Source of the DNA: Candidatus Zhuqueibacterota bacterium
GTDB taxonomy: Bacteria > Zhuqueibacterota > Zhuqueibacteria > Thermofontimicrobiales > Thermofontimicrobiaceae
Assembly: GCA_049322915.1 (NCBI GenBank)
Contig: JBMOPW010000036.1
Location: forward strand, 64,001-128,000
Reading direction: 5' to 3'
DNA: 64,000 nt
This document shows positions 30,001 to 42,000 of this stretch, one piece after another (position 1 is the stretch's first letter; every line of letters starts with the position of its first letter). Position numbers: made by a program.

Positions 30001-33000
30001 TTTTGACGACCATCGGTTTCATCTCGCAGGATGAAACCGCACTGCTCGTTCTGTCCATCATCGGTTTGGTGATCGCTTCTTTCTTAGTGCTCACCGCTAT
30101 TCCCGGCATCATTGGCGGCATTGGATTGCTGAAGCGAAAGAGCTGGGCGCGCATTCTCATCCTCATCGTTGCAGCGATCGATTTATTGGATTTTCCCCTG
30201 GGGACAGCGCTGAGCGTATATTCATTCTGGGTGTTGTTGCAGGATGAATCGGCAAAAATATTTTCAGCCGAAAATCAAAAAACAGTGATTGTGTAGCAGA
30301 CTCATTTTAACACGTCGAGGTAGGTTTTGGAATCATTAAAAATTCTTGTGATTGATGACGAACCGGGCCTGCGCGAAGGCTGCCGGCGCATCTGCGAAGC
30401 AGAGGGATTTCAGGTCATGGTTGCGCAAAATGGTCGCGCCGGTTTGGATATTGCAGAGACGAATAAAATCGATTGTGCGCTGATCGACCTGAAATTGCCG
30501 GACATGGTGACGACCATCGGTTATGCCTGAAGAAATAACATAGTCTTCCCTTTGTTGGCGTCCGATACATGCGATTACTTGATTTTGTAAAGTAGCCTGC
30601 GGTAACCGTGCAGAAACCAGAGGTATAAGATAAGCGTGAACTGTATATGCGCATCATTGAAGAAATACAGAAAAAGATTGGAAGAGATCAGTTCGAGTTT
30701 TCCAAACACGCAGTGGATCAAAGTATCATTCGTAGCATCAGTGTACAAGAAGTTCGAGAAGCCATTCTCAATGGTGAGATAATTGAAAATTACCCGAAGG
30801 ACAAATACGGACCAAGCTGTTTGATTCTTGGTAAGACGACAAAAAGTAGGCCATTGCACATACAATGCAGCTCTCCATCACGGAAGCGTATCAAAATCAT
30901 AACGATGTATGAACCCGACCCGGCTCGATGGGTTGAATTCAAAAAACGGAGATCATCATGAGCTACAAAAAAGAAAAGTTGGTTGAACGTCGGGTCACAT
31001 ATACGCTGGAGCATCAAGGCCGCTTCTATATTGTAGAAAACGTGCCAGCCCGAGTGAATGAAGAAACTGGAGAACAATTTTTTTCCCCTGCTACTGTAGA
31101 AAAGCTTCAAGAAACTATCATGGGACAGACAAAGCCCAGCAAAGTAATTGAAACATCAGTATACGAATATTCTGAGTAATACGAAAACATGAAAATATCA
31201 GTTAAGGGAGGGCACAACCATTCATTCCCCCGACAAAAGGGCGGCAGTTCTCCGGGTTGGTTTGGCGCTCTCTCGAAAGTCATTTTGGAATTCAAGGTTC
31301 AATGCGCTCAAACCCTTTTGCGGGTGAGGATCGTGTTTTACACAAAAAATATAAAAAAACATAGTCGCATAGCCTTAATTTGCACGAGATGATCATCGTG
31401 GAATGAACTAATCCCCAAGGAGTCAAATCAATATAATTTAAATGTTATAGATTTTTTTCTCTTGATGATCGATTTGTACAGTGCAAAAAATTTTGAGCAG
31501 GTATATTAAAATTCATTGATATTTCTAATTATATTAATTAACCTTAATTAGTCTCTTTATCGGGATACCGTGCTATTAAAATGCCTTAGCATGAGTGAGA
31601 GCAATTCAACCTCTCTAAACAATAGCTATGTGAAAAAGTTTGAACCCCAGGAGTTAAAAATGAAAGTTCATGAAATTGAGAATAAAATTAAAAAGTTGCC
31701 AGACTATATCATTCCAGAGGTTAATGATTTTGTCGACTTTTTATTAGCTAAATATGGTGCTAAAAAAACAGATAAAAATAATTTTAAATTTGATTGGGAA
31801 GGTGGATTAGCAAAATTAAAAAATAAATATACATCTGTGGAATTGCAGCATAAAGCTTTGGAGTGGCGATAATGTATTTAGTCGACACTAACATATTTCT
31901 AGAGATACTGCTAACACAAGAAAAAAGCGAAGATTGTAAGTCTTTTCTTTCAAAGAATATTGCTGTGATTGGTATTTCCGACTTTACGCTTCACTCTATT
32001 GGTGTCATTCTTTTTAAACAAAACGAAGAAGATGCATTTTTAAAATTTATTTGCGATACTTTGCCTAAAATCAATCTCCTTACCCTTCCAAAAGATAAAT
32101 ACGATAAATTAATTGACATAAAGATAAGATGCGGCCTGGACTTTGATGACTCTTACCAGTATTATATCTGCAAGCATTATGATTTGAAACTAATTACAAT
32201 GGATCAGGATTTCAGGCATATAAACGACATAGAAATTGAATTTTTATAGTTAAGCGGAATATTCAAGTATTTGTATAAGATATCTTTATGTAACCATACA
32301 TTGAACTGACCGAACCACTGCGGTTTTCTCATATTTTGCCTGGAAATTTCAAAGAATTTGGTTTCTTAATTTTAAATTATTCGGTTCGGCAGTTCATGCT
32401 GTCGTTCGGTGATCGCTTCTTTCTTAGTGCTCACCGCCATTCCCGGCATCATTGGCGGCATTGGATTGCTGAAGCGAAAGAGCTGGGCGCGCATTCTCAT
32501 CCTCATCGTTGCAGCGATCGATTTATTGGATTTTCCCCTGGGGACAGCGCTGAGCGTGTATTCATTCTGGGTGTTGTTGCAGGATGAATCGGCAAAAATA
32601 TTTTCAGCCGAAAATCAAAAAACAGTGATTGTGTAGCAGACTCATTTTAACACGTCGAGGTAGGTTTTGGAATCATTAAAAATTCTTGTGATTGATGACG
32701 AACCGGGCCTGCGCGAAGGCTGCCGGCGCATCTGCGAAGCAGAGGGATTTCAGGTCATGGTTGCGCAAAATGGTCGCGCCGGTTTGGATATTGCAGAGAC
32801 GAATAAAATCGATTGTGCGCTGATCGACCTGAAATTGCCGGACATGGATGGCCTGGACGTGCTGCGCACCATTCGGAGCGTTCATCCCGAAATACTCGCC
32901 ATTATTATCACCGGCCACGGCTCCATCGAAATCGCCGTGGAGGCCATCAAATTGGGCGCATACGATTTTCTGTCCAAGCCATTCACGCCGGATCAACTGA

Positions 33001-39000: not shown

Positions 39001-42000
39001 GGGCGAATGCCATTACATTTCCGGCAATGAAACCTGTCTGGCCGTGGTGAAGGAGACAGCGGAACTGCTCATGCTTTCCGGCATCGATTCCCGCCGGCTG
39101 GAAATGGAACTGTTCACCAATCTCAGCGGCGAATACTTCGTCTCGGTCGTCACCGGGTTCTCGGACAGGATCGCCCGGCTTGGACCTCTGGCAGAAAAGG
39201 AGGCCGCATGAAATTAGACGCGATCATCCAGGAGACCAATGCCCATTTCTGTCTCGAGTGCGGGATTTGTACCGGCAGTTGCCCTGTTTCGCGGATCAAT
39301 CCCGGCTACTCGCCGCGGCTGTTCGTGGAGAAATCTCTGCTCATTTCCGAGGATGAGTTAATTGAGGACAGCGATTTGTGGACCTGCCTCACCTGCGGCG
39401 CGTGCAGCGCGCGGTGCCCCTCGCGAGTCGATTACAACGAGTTCATGCGGCGCACCCGAAGTCTGGCCATCGACGTCGACAATCGCGGAATTTGCACCCA
39501 CGCCGGCACGATTCAGGCCATCGCATCGCTGCAGAAACAGGATTTCGTGACAAAGGATCTGAGTTGGATTCCTTCTGAAATGAAAACTCAAGAGAGCGGC
39601 GAAACGCTGCTTTTTGTCGGATGCACGCCTTACTACGAGGTGATTTTCAGGGATATAAATGCCGGCAGCCTGACGCCGGTCGTCTCGGCCATTAAAATTC
39701 TGAACGCGGTGGGCGTCGCGCCGGTCATCCGCTCCGACGAGCGCTGTTGCGGCCATGACGCCTACTGGACCGGAGAAATTGAAAAATTCAAAATCCTGGC
39801 GCAGAAGAACATCGACATGGTTAAAAAGGCCGGGGCGAAACGGGTTATTTTCACGTGCGCTGAAGGTTTCAGCACGTTCAAAACCCTCTATCCCAGATTT
39901 TTCAGCGAACTGAATTTCGAGGTGCTCCATATCTCGCAGTTCATCGCCGAGAAAATCGCCTCCGGCGAATTGAAACTCAGGGAGAATGGCCACAAGGTCA
40001 CCTATCACGACCCTTGCCGGCTGGGTCGATTCGAAAGCGAATTCGACGCGCCGAGAAACGCGCTGCTGGCCATCCCCAAATTGGAATTGGTGGAGATGTC
40101 GAGAAACCGTGAAAATGCCCTGTGCTGCGGTTCCAGCACGTGGATCAACTGCACCCGGATTAATAAAAGAATACAGGTGGAAAAATTGAAAGAGGCGCAG
40201 GCCACCGGTGCGACAACCCTGGTCACGGCCTGCCCCAAATGCAAAATTCATTTGAGCTGCACGAAACATGATAATGGATTTGATGTCAATATAGAAATCA
40301 AGGACCTGGCTACGCTGGTGGCTGAAAATTTACAGGCCTAAGTACAGCGTTTCACAAATCGATGTAGGGTTTCAATGATGAAAATGAGTTTTCATTGATC
40401 GTCATTCCCGCATTTTTTTTGGCGGGAATCCAGTGGATGCCCGATATCCTCCAAATGCTGGACGGGCATGATGGATGAACCCACCAAAAATTTATGAAAT
40501 GGTATACTAAGTGGACTATTTTACTCGATAGTATATAATTTTGAATATGGAAAATGTCCATGGGGATCGCCTCTGACATCGTCATCATTGTTGTTGCTGC
40601 ATTGATTGGTGGATTAGTTGCTAGATTATTTAAGCAACCTCTGATCTTAGGCTATATCCTTGCTGGAATTTTAATTGGTCCCAATACAGGTGGCGTAACA
40701 GTTTCTAATATTCATGAGATTGAGACATTAGCGGAGATCGGTGTCGCACTTCTTCTCTTTGCAATTGGTCTTGAATTCTCGTTTAATGAACTGAAGCCTG
40801 TTCGTAAAATCGCCTTGATTGGCACACCAATTCAAATAATATTAACAATCGTCTATGGTTATGCCATCGGTCATTTTTGGGGCTGGAGTTGGAACCAATC
40901 GCTTTGGCTTGGGGCAATGATCTCGATATCCAGCACAATGGTTACACTTAAAACCTTAATGAGTCAGGGCTGGATGGGGACTCTTTCCAGTCGAGTAATG
41001 ATTGGCATGTTAATTATTCAGGATTTAGCGATTGTGCCAATGATAATTATCTTGCCCCAGTTGAATAATCCTACGGTTGGTTTGCCATTATTAGGAATAG
41101 CAGTAATCAAGGCTATCATTTTTCTATTAGTGATGATTTTGCTTGGTACAAAATTAATTCCTTATTTATTAAAAAAGATTGCCAGTTGGAATTCCCGTGA
41201 ATTTTTTTTACTCTCAATCGTAACAATGGGATTAGGAATTGGTTATGGCACATATCTTTTTGGTCTTTCATTCGCATTCGGCGCGTTTATTGCTGGGATG
41301 GTTATCAGTGAGTCAGATTATGGCTATCAGGCTTTAAGCGATATTATCCCGCTTCGCGATATTTTCAGTCTGCTTTTTTTTGCATCCGTTGGGATGTTAT
41401 TAGAGCCTGGTTTTATGCTCTTCCATTGGAAAATGATTTTAATTTTAGTTCTGCTCGTGTTGCTCGGAAAAGGTATTATATTTGGTGGGTTAAGCAGATT
41501 TTTTGGTTATCGAAATGTAATACCACTTGCAGTGGGTTTGGGATTATTCCAGATTGGCGAGTTTTCTTTTGTGCTGGCACGATTGGGATTAAATACAAAT
41601 TCCATCGACGCTGAACTTTATTCTTTGCTTCTGTCGACAACAATTGTCACTATGCTAATAACGCCATTTATGTCAAGCTTAACTACACCGCTGTATTCAA
41701 TATATAAAAAGAAATTCAATCATGAGCCTTACCAGATGACAAATCTGCCAAAATCCGGACTGAAGGATCATATTATCATTGCAGGTGGTGGTCGTATCGG
41801 CTGCAATATCGCCAAGGTTTTACATCAACTGAAATTATCATTTATTATTATTGAATTGGACTCGAGAAATTTTGAACAATTGAAAAACATTGGTTTTTCA
41901 GTAGTTTATGGTGATGCGAGTCGTGATGAAGTGCTTGAAGCTGCAAAGGTCAAGCATGCAAAATTACTTCTTATTACGATACCATCGATTATCATTTCAA

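Follow-up and report, generated by a model that had tools for sequence, protein, structure and literature searches.

Response regulators with enzymatic outputs, such as CheB, PleD/WspR and RpfG, use a receiver domain to control catalysis directly and post-translationally, not through transcription. In the transcriptional activators NtrC1 and DctD, the receiver is joined to its output by a coiled-coil linker, through which phosphorylation alters dimer packing. Among bifurcating (Bfu) enzymes, the available description of the solved homologue T. maritima HydABC places the BfuC subunit on a peripheral lobe, adjoining mobile domains. In class II benzoyl-CoA reductase, the accessible part of a preprint (10.64898/2026.04.10.717634) reports that the BamFGHI arm turns by ~28 degrees between two states. 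No description of a receiver built into an electron-bifurcating enzyme subunit was found in the literature searched, and the terms response regulator, receiver, CheY and kinase are absent from the main text of Schut et al. (2022).

The window analysed here, a 64,000-nucleotide stretch of contig JBMOPW010000036.1 from a Candidatus Zhuqueibacterota genome, encodes such a protein:

32667..33566 (+): REC-NuoE (REC-BfuC) fusion, 299 aa (Pfam, residues, AF2 model, PDB sequence/fold matches)

The open reading frame starts with TTG, with GAGGTAGG 8 nt upstream. Pfam matches cover a receiver at residues 6–115 (Response_reg, E 2.1e-32, 110/111 model positions) and a C-terminal domain at residues 149–293 (2Fe-2S_thioredx, E 3.6e-51, 145/145 model positions), which confirms the fusion of a complete receiver to a complete NuoE/HydC domain reported in a preliminary description of this DNA. 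All five catalytic residues of the receiver are intact (D10, D11, D54, T82 and K104, accompanied by the K-3 aromatic F101, by P105 and by the motifs TGHG and KPF), as are the cluster ligands C219, C224, C260 and C264. An AF2 model (pLDDT 86, pTM 0.48) predicts a single long linker helix, residues 108–155, with pLDDT falling to 55 at residues 131–140, and its inter-domain geometry is uncertain. The receiver half matches the fold of the phosphorylated NtrC1 receiver with an rmsd of 1.2 Å. The best PDB matches of the [2Fe-2S] half are BfuC/HydC subunits of bifurcating enzymes, 8a6t_C (E 2.6e-45), 7t2r_C, 9n5u_C and 9mqx_C; residues 144–293 align end to end with BfuC/HydC chains (E 2.6e-45 to 1.7e-30; Foldseek E 1e-17 to 1e-15). 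A fold search with the model returned no PDB chain spanning both halves (best query-normalised TM-score 0.43).

The fusion is conserved as a family, as previously stated: 118 of the 119 other listed proteins carry PF00072 and PF01257, the exception being P0062 (199 aa), and listed members are mostly 292–293 aa long and 43–87% identical. The earlier total of 1055 proteins at E<=1e-40 was not reproduced as such; the present search gave 4526 at E<=1e-10, single-domain proteins included. Across 120 listed proteins, Asp occupies position 54 in 105 and Glu in 7, Lys occupies position 104 in 117, and 110 have Thr or Ser at position 82, close to the figures given before. The count had left out D11, the direct metal ligand: Asp stands there in no more than 63/120 (an acidic residue in 66/120), and the full [DE]-D-D-[ST]-K set occurs in only 62/120. 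The four cluster Cys are kept in 120/120, and 3–6/120 members are N-terminally truncated. Approximately 45% of the listed family (about 52–55/120) are pseudo-receivers in the sense defined in the available part of PMC12632262, mostly without the metal-binding Asp, and on the tree they fall in two clades only. As this Asp is gone in nearly half of the listed members, the phospho-control proposed for the subunit is not claimable family-wide.

Domain, linker and every cluster ligand persist in the pseudo-receiver members, so the receiver domain is of value even where it is not phosphorylated, and this could apply here too. The receiver of the window's fusion might accordingly be a structural or dimerisation domain whose canonical residues are kept by ancestry, with no kinase acting on it. 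This reading appears improbable, given that the canonical set is retained over 44–87% identity, and the distribution of the candidate kinase, described below, also argues against it.

An 11-gene set that includes the fusion and is contiguous in relatives (BfuC/B/A, HdrA, MvhD, HdrD-like, further HdrA pieces, a second MvhD and GltD-like) extends over about 32667–52390 of the window:

33855..35663 (+): NuoF/HydB/BfuB-type flavoprotein, N-terminal 2Fe-2S, C-terminal 2x[4Fe-4S] (Pfam; synteny)
~35668..36306 (+): NuoG-N-terminal-like / BfuA-like ferredoxin, 2Fe-2S + 4Fe-4S (Pfam Fer2_4, Fer4_7, Fer4_Nqo3; NCBIfam HoxU, FeFe A6 N-terminus); start (35668) taken from an internal ATG within ORF 35578–36306
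36481..38136 (+): HdrA-like flavoprotein (Pfam; NCBIfam HdrA2)
38795..39211 (+): MvhD/FlpD adaptor (Pfam FlpD, E 6.6e-39)
39208..40341 (+): HdrD/BamD-like protein, 2x[4Fe-4S] and two CCG domains (Pfam CCG x2, Fer4_8)
42910..44034 (+): fragment from the middle of HdrA that includes the inserted ferredoxin domain (NCBIfam HdrA2 model 199–561; synteny)
44224..45897 (+): second HdrA-like flavoprotein (Pfam, NCBIfam, synteny)
46171..46821 (+): second MvhD-like protein with C-terminal extension (Pfam FlpD, synteny)
48221..49933 (+): GltD/NfnB-like NAD(P)H flavoprotein with HdrA-type N-terminal piece (Pfam, NCBIfam, synteny)
49967..52390 (+): HdrA-related protein, 807 aa, last of the conserved set (NCBIfam; 64% identity in G113)

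Pfam assigns the genes through 40341 to the families named previously. The unit does not end at 40341 as had been supposed: that boundary was set by a KefB-like gene, which is missing from a same-genus genome. A HydB-type NuoF lies directly 3′ of the fusion in 11/11 related loci with downstream DNA (L001–L004, L007–L009, G113, L102, L103, L105), and the window's NuoF/HydB-type protein is 54–76% identical to its counterparts in relatives. Similarly, the counterpart of the HdrA fragment directly follows the HdrD-like gene in L001, L004, L007, L008, G113 and L103. Gene context thus makes the fusion the BfuC (HydC/NuoE-type) [2Fe-2S] subunit of what would be a soluble complex with several flavins. 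The earlier label of NADH:heterodisulfide module was right in its subunit families but too specific, because the HdrA2 model is matched on 36481–38136 at positions 1–233 and 315–644 only, leaving out the inserted ferredoxin domain (234–314), because neither a hydrogenase nor a known thiol substrate is present, and because, among described architectures, BamDEFGHI of class II benzoyl-CoA reductase comes closest, minus the catalytic BamBC. The HdrD/BamD-like protein gives partial NCBIfam matches to TfrB, GlpC, DsrK and HdrC, all below cut-off, and three AOR genes lie elsewhere in the genome.

Upstream, the fusion is preceded by a HydS-type cassette and a partial copy of itself:

26118..27371 (+): HydS-like protein with an [FeFe]-hydrogenase H-domain but neither PAS nor kinase, of M2e / group D-like layout (Pfam; available part of Land et al. 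2020)
27834..28625 (+): PHP-domain protein of the HydS cassette (Pfam; synteny)
28634..29302 (+): GHKL ATPase without HisKA/DHp domain (Pfam HATPase_c only)
30064..30530 (+): partial duplicate of the fusion gene, comprising its first 60 codons and the region before them (tblastn, direct repeat, contig graph)

The HydS-like gene lies 1.9–2.4 kb upstream of the fusion in G113, G124, G096, G095 and G136, and also upstream in L103 and L105; the GHKL ATPase gene directly adjoins the fusion on its upstream side in L001, L102–L105 and G113. The duplicate is a direct repeat with 2340-bp spacing, whose truncated copy (30327–30530) matches residues 1–60 at 98% (tblastn) and continues with 7 unrelated codons and a stop.

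Farther upstream lies a conserved sensor set:

6175..8238 (+): hydrogenase-like histidine kinase, 2x[4Fe-4S], H-domain, Cx2Cx4Cx16C, HisKA, HATPase (Pfam; motif alignment)
8361..8768 (+): stand-alone receiver, 135 aa, between both kinases (ORF; Pfam E 1.5e-18)
8874..10361 (+): REC-PAS-HisKA-HATPase hybrid kinase (Pfam; alpha1 ranking)
10610..12868 (+): fused NfnA-NfnB-like flavoprotein, last of the set (Pfam; NCBIfam PRK12778 above cut-off)

The order hydrogenase-like kinase, receiver, receiver-PAS-kinase and NfnAB is conserved; the stand-alone receiver holds the same position in G158 and G153, and the NfnA-NfnB-like protein is 71% identical to its positional equivalent in G158. Both hydrogenase-like kinases listed previously are present, the second at C13:103600–105558. 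H2 as the kinase signal is doubtful, since the maturases HydE, HydF and HydG were not found in the genomes examined; Fe-S or redox state would be the more likely signal.

The preliminary description paired kinase and receiver by vicinity only, and this pairing now also rests on a neighbourhood shared by two further, unrelated lineages, on presence and absence, and on the alpha1 specificity helix. A Dehalococcoidales MAG carries, in sequence, RpoN, hydrogenase-like kinase, NtrC-type regulator, REC-NuoE, NuoF, REC-NuoG-N, ApbE and Rnf. In G158, from a second KSB1 lineage, the kinase, REC, REC-PAS-kinase, NfnAB, HydS-like, PHP and GHKL ATPase genes run to a contig end inside the ATPase gene, and a second contig, beginning later in the same gene, holds REC-NuoE and the rest. 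The window keeps the G158 order, split by ~13 kb of lower-GC genes. Among the 11 other genomes of the window's family sampled for both, fusion and kinase orthologue occur together in 5, neither in 5, the kinase only in 1 (G083, 90% complete) and the fusion only in 0. Outside the family, the kinase is present in 3/3 genomes whose fusion is canonical or canonical-type (G153, G158, G161; the G153 receiver is half masked, its label resting on the visible half and close relatives) and in 0/6 with degenerate receivers (G154–G157, G159, G160), a contrast that reflects approximately two evolutionary changes on the tree and MAGs of partial or not established completeness. The two degenerate clades are those whose six examined genomes lack the kinase, as would be expected if the residues persist only in the presence of a phosphate donor.

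When the fusion's alpha1 helix was ranked against 97 other receiver hits in the genome, the best match was the receiver of the REC-PAS kinase 8874–10361 (9/15 identical, BLOSUM score 49; next best 6/15, score 31). At the Dehalococcoidales locus, three kinase-adjoining receivers have a common alpha1 motif, different from the window's. Conserved neighbourhood, presence that tracks receiver integrity and matching specificity helices together support, at the level of sequence comparison, the kinase 6175–8238 as the candidate sender; this comparative support is new here.

A donor unrelated to the hydrogenase-like relay, with co-occurrence reflecting shared inheritance of two redox loci, seems quite unlikely. 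The genome has at least 66 kinase-like matches, which makes another donor possible, and within the window's family the kinase set does not adjoin the fusion: the two are unlinked in most genomes, being on separate contigs in G095 and G124, among others, and in L103 and L105 the 10 kb preceding the fusion contain no kinase set. Overall, the receivers of the hybrids C34:500473 and C34:233405 resemble the fusion's receiver as closely as does that of the REC-PAS kinase, but their alpha1 scores are 31 and 30 against 49, and the kinase lies within the fusion neighbourhood in the two unrelated lineages.

The common specificity helix would be expected of two acceptors competing for one donor. Information could flow in reverse, the [2Fe-2S] redox state or incorporation into the complex setting phosphate uptake or retention by the receiver, so that the fusion would serve mainly in signalling, as a phosphate sink tuned by redox state or as a feedback arm of the relay, and not as a regulated enzyme subunit. 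The window's conserved sensor set lacks a DNA-binding output gene, and the available part of PMC7078487 reports feedback on a two-component system by a receiver that binds Fe-S. We hold this direction to be doubtful, however: the fusion is the sole BfuC-type (NuoE-type) gene in the cluster, in a family defined by an invariant BfuBC core (available part of Schut et al. 2022), it directly precedes BfuB in 11/11 loci, and its NuoE half shares 52–61% identity with unfused BfuC proteins encoded in ordinary Bfu operons. The signalling and subunit roles could coexist in one protein.

It is proposed, with about even confidence for and against and on sequence grounds, that the fusion is a BfuC subunit with a working receiver of the NtrC1/DctD type, phosphorylated via the hydrogenase-like kinase relay and gating electron flow through the complex. 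The sequences themselves show that both domains are intact, that gene context makes the protein a BfuC subunit, that the neighbourhood is conserved and that the kinase co-occurs. The complex would connect a Bfu-type NADH/ferredoxin module (BfuC/B/A) via MvhD to HdrA-type flavoproteins, the HdrD/BamD-like CCG protein and a GltD-like NAD(P)H module. We infer phosphotransfer, the acting kinase, its signal and the direction of the effect: Asp54 would take phosphate from a phosphorelay headed by kinase 6175–8238, directly or through the REC-PAS kinase. Because alpha5 of the receiver is predicted to form one helix with the first BfuC-domain helix, phosphorylation would alter receiver pairing or docking and, in turn, where the peripheral BfuBC arm lies or how freely it moves. 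Electron flow may thereby be gated, on or off, within seconds and with no need for new gene expression. If true, a sensor kinase may act on the activity of the enzyme as such, turning it on or off, and not solely on its genes. The original observation is confirmed, and its interpretation as a whole partly supported.

Among described systems, the sensor kinase 6175–8238 resembles group C1 'histidine kinase-linked' [FeFe]-hydrogenases (HydDB), having an M2-type layout fused to HisKA-HATPase. The HydS-like protein has the PAS-less M2e layout of HydS cassettes upstream of HydABC (TamHydS, TmHydS), with a kinase-like ATPase flank as reported for TamHydS in the available part of Land et al. (2020). 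In the accessible literature on putative sensory [FeFe]-hydrogenases, hydrogenase expression is given as the target where one is named at all, with no mention of a redox-subunit receiver.

On the enzyme side, the fusion shares the end-to-end alignment and four Cys ligands with BfuC/HydC subunits of HydABC from T. kivui (8a6t), A. woodii (7q4v) and T. maritima (7p5h), NiFe-HydABCSL (7t2r), NfnABC (9n5u, 9bp5), StnABC (8oh5) and WOR-Bfu (9mqx), but none of these solved chains has a receiver. At both termini the window's BfuB carries the additional clusters by which the available part of Schut et al. (2022) distinguishes the bifurcating type. The accessible accounts of Bam-Bfu from Geobacter metallireducens (PMC9304861; preprint 10.64898/2026.04.10.717634) share with the window a single cluster that unites the module types BamG/H/I (BfuC/B/A), BamF (MvhD), BamE (HdrA type) and BamD (CCG), with two bifurcation-type modules per predicted complex. 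They describe HdrA as a fused dimer and BamG without a receiver, whereas the window's HdrA is single or split, additional HdrA, MvhD and GltD-like genes are present, and the locus has no BamB/BamC tungsten catalytic unit.

The best solved matches of the fusion's receiver are those of NtrC1/DctD (1zy2, 1ny5, 1l5y; sigma-54 activators; E 3.7e-24 and following), and its alpha5 is likewise predicted to run into a long linker helix, but the NtrC1/DctD output is an AAA+ ATPase and that of the fusion an iron-sulfur subunit of an oxidoreductase. In CheB, PleD/WspR and RpfG, the receiver acts on an enzyme domain of the same polypeptide, whereas the receiver of the fusion sits on the electron-transfer subunit of a multi-subunit complex.

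A complete receiver domain is joined to a NuoE/HydC-type [2Fe-2S] subunit (BfuC in bifurcating enzymes) in one protein, REC-NuoE, encoded as follows.

32667-33566, + strand: REC-NuoE fusion ORF, 299 aa, TTG start, with a GAGGTAGG ribosome-binding site ahead

As the preliminary description had claimed, both domains are full-length in Pfam and their key residues are present. The Response_reg domain occupies residues 6-115 (E 2.1e-32; 110/111 model positions) and the 2Fe-2S_thioredx (NuoE) domain, PF01257, residues 149-293 (E 3.6e-51; 145/145 model positions). The receiver has a complete catalytic set, comprising the Asp10-Asp11 pair, the phospho-acceptor Asp54, Thr82 and Lys104, together with the aromatic residue Phe101 at position K-3 and Pro105. 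Its (βα)5 fold is supported by Pfam, by AlphaFold2 secondary structure and by superposition on 1zy2_A (rmsd 1.2 Å). On its sequence, the N-terminal domain is thus a true receiver rather than a pseudo-receiver, as these are defined in the available part of PMC12632262.

An AlphaFold2 model of the fusion, built from 28 family sequences, reached a mean pLDDT of 86 and contains a single helix spanning residues 108-155, in which receiver α5 merges with helix 1 of the NuoE half. The orientation of the receiver relative to the NuoE half is uncertain in this model (pTM 0.48; pLDDT 55 at residues 131-140). By sequence and fold, the N-terminal half is nearest the receivers of NtrC1 and DctD, and the C-terminal half is nearest the C subunits of the solved HydABC, NiFe-HydABCSL, NfnABC, StnABC and WOR-Bfu complexes; the same comparison found no solved chain spanning both halves.

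A family search returned 4526 proteins at E<=1e-10, and 119 proteins other than the window's own were among the matches listed. Both domains are present in 118 of these 119, as the preliminary description had reported for the family; they come from many sources, which rules out a frameshift or assembly artefact as the origin of the fusion. Listed members are usually 292-293 aa long and are named only as NuoE-type subunits or, where JGI assigned the name automatically, as hybrids of the 'subunit E / CheY-like' sort. With the window's protein included, the four cluster cysteines are conserved in 120/120 listed members, residue 54 is Asp in 105/120 and Glu in 7/120, Lys104 is Lys in 117/120 and position 82 is Thr or Ser in 110/120. 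Asp11, which binds the metal directly, is Asp in only 63/120, and the full canonical set ([DE]-D-D-[ST]-K) is found in 62/120.

Degenerate receivers, which lack at least one catalytic residue, are confined to two clades of 6 and 46 rows in a tree built from the linker and NuoE columns alone (114 fusions and 28 unfused outgroup sequences, after six rows gapped at a key site were dropped), and only two changes of state are needed. The window's protein falls in an entirely canonical clade of 50 rows (SH-aLRT 97). In pseudo-receiver loci, a Cys-rich protein of ~178 aa is encoded just upstream of the fusion (L003:3519-4887, L007:8644-9970 and L008:8606-9498; L and G numbers denote compared loci and genomes). 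A small DRTGG-domain protein is also encoded upstream in L003 and L008, and the PHP/ATPase pair does not occupy that place in any of the three loci.

Downstream of the fusion lie genes for a HydB-type NuoF, a NuoG-N-like ferredoxin, an HdrA-like flavoprotein, MvhD and a protein with Fer4 and two CCG domains (Pfam). In relatives (L001, L004, L007, L008 and L103, and G113, a genome of the same genus), this series runs on unbroken with a fragment of HdrA, then second HdrA and MvhD genes, one for a GltD-like protein and one for a large HdrA-related protein. In the window, the sixth and seventh genes of the cluster are separated by a KefB-like Na/H-exchanger and TrkA gene (40554-42527; GC 0.40), which is missing from G113, where only ~550 bp lie at that site. 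Because the series is unbroken in relatives and the KefB-like gene is absent from G113, we place the redox unit at ~32667-52390. The operon of the preliminary description thus had the subunit types right and ended too early.

The fusion is the sole NuoE-type gene of this unit, and NuoF follows it directly in 11/11 loci with downstream DNA, a count that leaves out L005, L006 and L104, in which the DNA ends too early. The partner BfuB combines FMN, SLBB and NADH_4Fe-4S domains with an extra N-terminal 2Fe-2S domain and a C-terminal 2x[4Fe-4S] domain. With a full PF01257 domain, four cysteines and a bifurcating-type BfuB encoded beside it, the fusion is predicted to fit the BfuC role. In the two HdrA genes (551 and 557 aa) the inserted ferredoxin domain is missing; it sits on HdrA fragments encoded separately, 374 and 807 aa long. 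The 374-aa piece (42910-44034) corresponds to HdrA2-model positions 199-561, inserted ferredoxin domain included; the GltD-like protein (48221-49933) opens with HdrA positions 138-296, and the 807-aa protein (to 52390) contains additional HdrA parts.

Two intergenic gaps within the unit are long. That between the fusion and NuoF (33567-33854) measures 288 bp, with 30-155 bp in L001, L004, L007 and L008; it contains no known RNA element (Rfam gathering thresholds, 25000-53000) and no + strand terminator-like site (scan of 29200-43000). The HdrA-MvhD gap (38137-38794) measures 658 bp, with ~100 bp in L001, and holds a 93-aa hydrophobic ORF (38444-38725) that has no family match. Across 29200-43000, 30 promoter-like sites were counted, where shuffled sequence gave a mean of 18.7 (sd 3.7), and 12 terminator-like sites, where it gave 15.8. 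The sigma-54 promoter pattern matched four times, against 5.3 matches expected by chance, and never upstream of the fusion.

Beside the fusion gene, a direct repeat of ~440 bp (99% identical copies, 2340-bp spacing; 30064-32847) brackets toxin-antitoxin-type genes, namely DUF4258 (30647-30961) and DUF2281 with PIN (31570-32249). The first copy contains a truncated fusion gene, codons 1-60. Contig depth in the probable source run was 136 over the repeat unit, 54 over the insert and 71 over the flanks, so the insert may be present in only part of the population, or may exist as a 2.3-kb circle.

Further upstream, a cassette of HydS-like, PHP and GHKL-ATPase genes occupies 26118-29302, and in relatives it lies directly upstream of the fusion (G113, G124, G096, G095, G136 and L102-L105). 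In L010 this cassette stands ahead of a plain NuoE, and the cassette's GHKL ATPase (28634-29302) has neither a HisKA/DHp domain nor an H-box, which rules this ATPase out as a canonical direct phosphodonor. On these two grounds, the HydS cassette is neither specific to the fusion nor a canonical donor.

A candidate sender is instead provided by a sensor set of four genes.

6175-8238, + strand: hydrogenase-like histidine kinase, H-domain fused to HisKA and HATPase (Pfam)
8361-8768, + strand: stand-alone receiver (ORF and Pfam)
8874-10361, + strand: REC-PAS kinase (Pfam)
10610-12868, + strand: fused NfnAB-like protein (Pfam)

The kinase resembles the histidine kinase-linked [FeFe]-hydrogenases of group C1 in its H-domain, HisKA, HATPase and H-cluster Cys ligands, and the xCP, PCxxK-like and CxxGC cysteines are common to all three kinases aligned. 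We link the sensor set to the fusion because of neighbourhood in two lineages, presence and absence across genomes, and the specificity helix of the receiver.

With respect to neighbourhood, in the Dehalococcoidales locus L009 REC-NuoE is preceded, two genes upstream, by a kinase with the same architecture, and NuoF is followed by a REC-NuoG-N fusion. In G158, from a second KSB1 lineage, HydS-like and PHP genes come after the complete sensor set, and the contig then ends ~85 residues into the ATPase; the contig with REC-NuoE starts at residue 122 of the same ATPase. The two contigs are best read as one locus, although the join itself is one that we infer. The window repeats this gene order, but split by ~13 kb (12869-26117); the sensor set and the HydS cassette lie ~0.8 kb apart in G158. 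The intervening stretch includes lower-GC segments (0.39-0.49) and contains genes for a secretin, an NtrC-type regulator and an FG-GAP kinase of 1192 aa, besides three ORFs that match no family.

Presence and absence point the same way. In a phylum sample of 150 genomes (including the unpublished G144 and G088, both counted among the negatives only), clear fusions of full length are limited to five members of the window's family (G113, G095, G096, G124 and G136); weak matches in G106, G072 and G130 have 30-31% identity and in-frame stops. Among the 11 family genomes covered by both searches, five have fusion and kinase, five neither, one the kinase only and none the fusion only. Outside the family, the kinase accompanies canonical or canonical-type fusions in G153 (receiver half masked), G158 and G161 and was not found in 6/6 degenerate-receiver genomes (G154-G157, G159 and G160), a contrast drawn entirely from MAGs and amounting to about two independent events. 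Those six genomes have only a HydS-like protein of ~430 aa.

Receiver helix α1 is the main determinant of kinase choice in two-component systems. The fusion and the receiver of the REC-PAS kinase both have ...REGCRRI... in this helix, and of the genome's 97 other receiver hits, it is the REC-PAS kinase's receiver that best matches the fusion in α1 (9/15 identical, score 49; next best, 6/15 identical, score 31). The three receivers next to the L009 kinase have a common, different α1 motif, R[DE]S[LV]RDWL.

In that Dehalococcoidales MAG, a receiver is also fused to a NuoG-N/BfuA-like subunit (L009:12805-13815), and the operon continues into ApbE and RnfCDGEAB. Receiver-NuoG-N/BfuA fusions form a separate family, in which both domains are carried by at least 76 of the protein clusters listed (59-99% identity), a few of these being named 'response regulator [Chloroflexota bacterium]'. 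The window's genome has a second sensor set on another contig (C13:98700-107300, L089), which encodes Rex, a 171-aa NuoE without receiver, NuoF, a HydA-like protein, a hydrogenase-like kinase 39% identical to that of the window, a 140-aa receiver and a REC-kinase hybrid.

HydE, HydF and HydG were each absent above cut-off from the window's genome (96% complete), and HydG was found in 0/14 family genomes and 0/5 other fusion-bearing genomes. No maturase turned up in the genome, although a HydA-like protein is encoded beside NuoE/NuoF and there are also genes for two hydrogenase-like kinases and a single HydS-like protein. At the site of the usual TSCCPxW motif, the HydA-like protein has TSCSPGW. 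For the kinase, H2 is no more likely as the signal than an Fe-S/redox one. An H-cluster may still be present in the kinase, because PMC11216029, in its available part, reports archaea with active [FeFe] hydrogenases that lack maturases.

In the proposed mechanism, a phosphorelay headed by the hydrogenase-like Fe-S sensor kinase would place phosphate on the receiver of the BfuC subunit; through the continuous helix, phosphorylation-dependent pairing or docking might then alter the position or mobility of the arm. In Dehalococcoidales, the same relay would also phosphorylate the receiver in the BfuA subunit. The available part of PMC9499530 describes HydB and HydC as outer lobes of Thermotoga maritima HydABC, with HydC near mobile 'bridge' domains and its cluster thought to participate in bifurcation. 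The BamGHI arms of class II benzoyl-CoA reductase are flexible, and BamFGHI rotates by ~28 degrees between two states (preprint 10.64898/2026.04.10.717634, available part). A complex prediction with NuoF, the NuoE half and the receiver as scored partner gave a score of 0.00 (mark 0.32) and argues neither for nor against docking. That the relay phosphorylates the BfuC receiver, and in Dehalococcoidales that of BfuA too, and so mechanically gates a mobile arm of the bifurcating supercomplex, is a tentative proposal that we regard as more doubtful than probable.

Electron-bifurcating enzymes set the NADH/ferredoxin/NADPH balance in anaerobes, and the literature searched discusses their regulation only as gene expression or conformational cycling. 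If the proposal is true, the fusion would act post-translationally as a rapid valve for electrons of low potential, and the two-component output, namely control of an electron-transfer chain, would be of a kind for which the literature searched gave no description. Nor did that literature, including the main text of Schut et al. 2022, describe a receiver fused to NuoE/HydC/BfuC; each part is of a well-known kind, and their union and implied output are not. The BfuC cluster adjoins the proposed bifurcating flavin site, and a receiver on BfuC offers a concrete handle, through which direct on/off control of bifurcation becomes testable with a single Asp, a BeF3- mimic and a named candidate kinase. 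The split of the family into canonical and pseudo-receivers supplies a ready-made natural comparison. HydDB gives the outputs of 'histidine kinase-linked' hydrogenase-like sensors as undetermined, and the fusion is a first candidate target for them.

In the terms that Schut et al. 2022 (PMC9304861, available part) apply to the Bfu core and its added subunits, the cluster is, by predicted gene content, a Bfu-type core with added subunits. The preliminary description had called it an NADH:heterodisulfide-type module; the HdrA, MvhD and CCG types are indeed present, but heterodisulfide is one possibility among several. Unlike HdrABC-MvhAGD, the HdrA gene at 36481 lacks the inserted ferredoxin domain, a single HdrD-like protein scoring far below equivalog cut-offs replaces HdrB/C, and no MvhA/G is encoded at the cluster, which, as predicted from these genes, does not classify as a heterodisulfide reductase of that type. 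The nearest relative described in the sources available is Bam-Bfu, the class II benzoyl-CoA reductase BamBCDEFGHI, whose BamGHI, BamF, BamE and BamD module types are matched by gene types in the one window cluster. Unlike Bam-Bfu, the window has no BamB/BamC tungsten AOR catalytic unit (three AFOR_N genes are on other contigs), and its HdrA appears to be arranged differently from BamE, in which two HdrA units with inserted ferredoxin domains are fused as a dimer. Since BamBC is absent from the locus and the HdrA arrangement appears to differ, the cluster is akin to Bam-Bfu and not a member of it.
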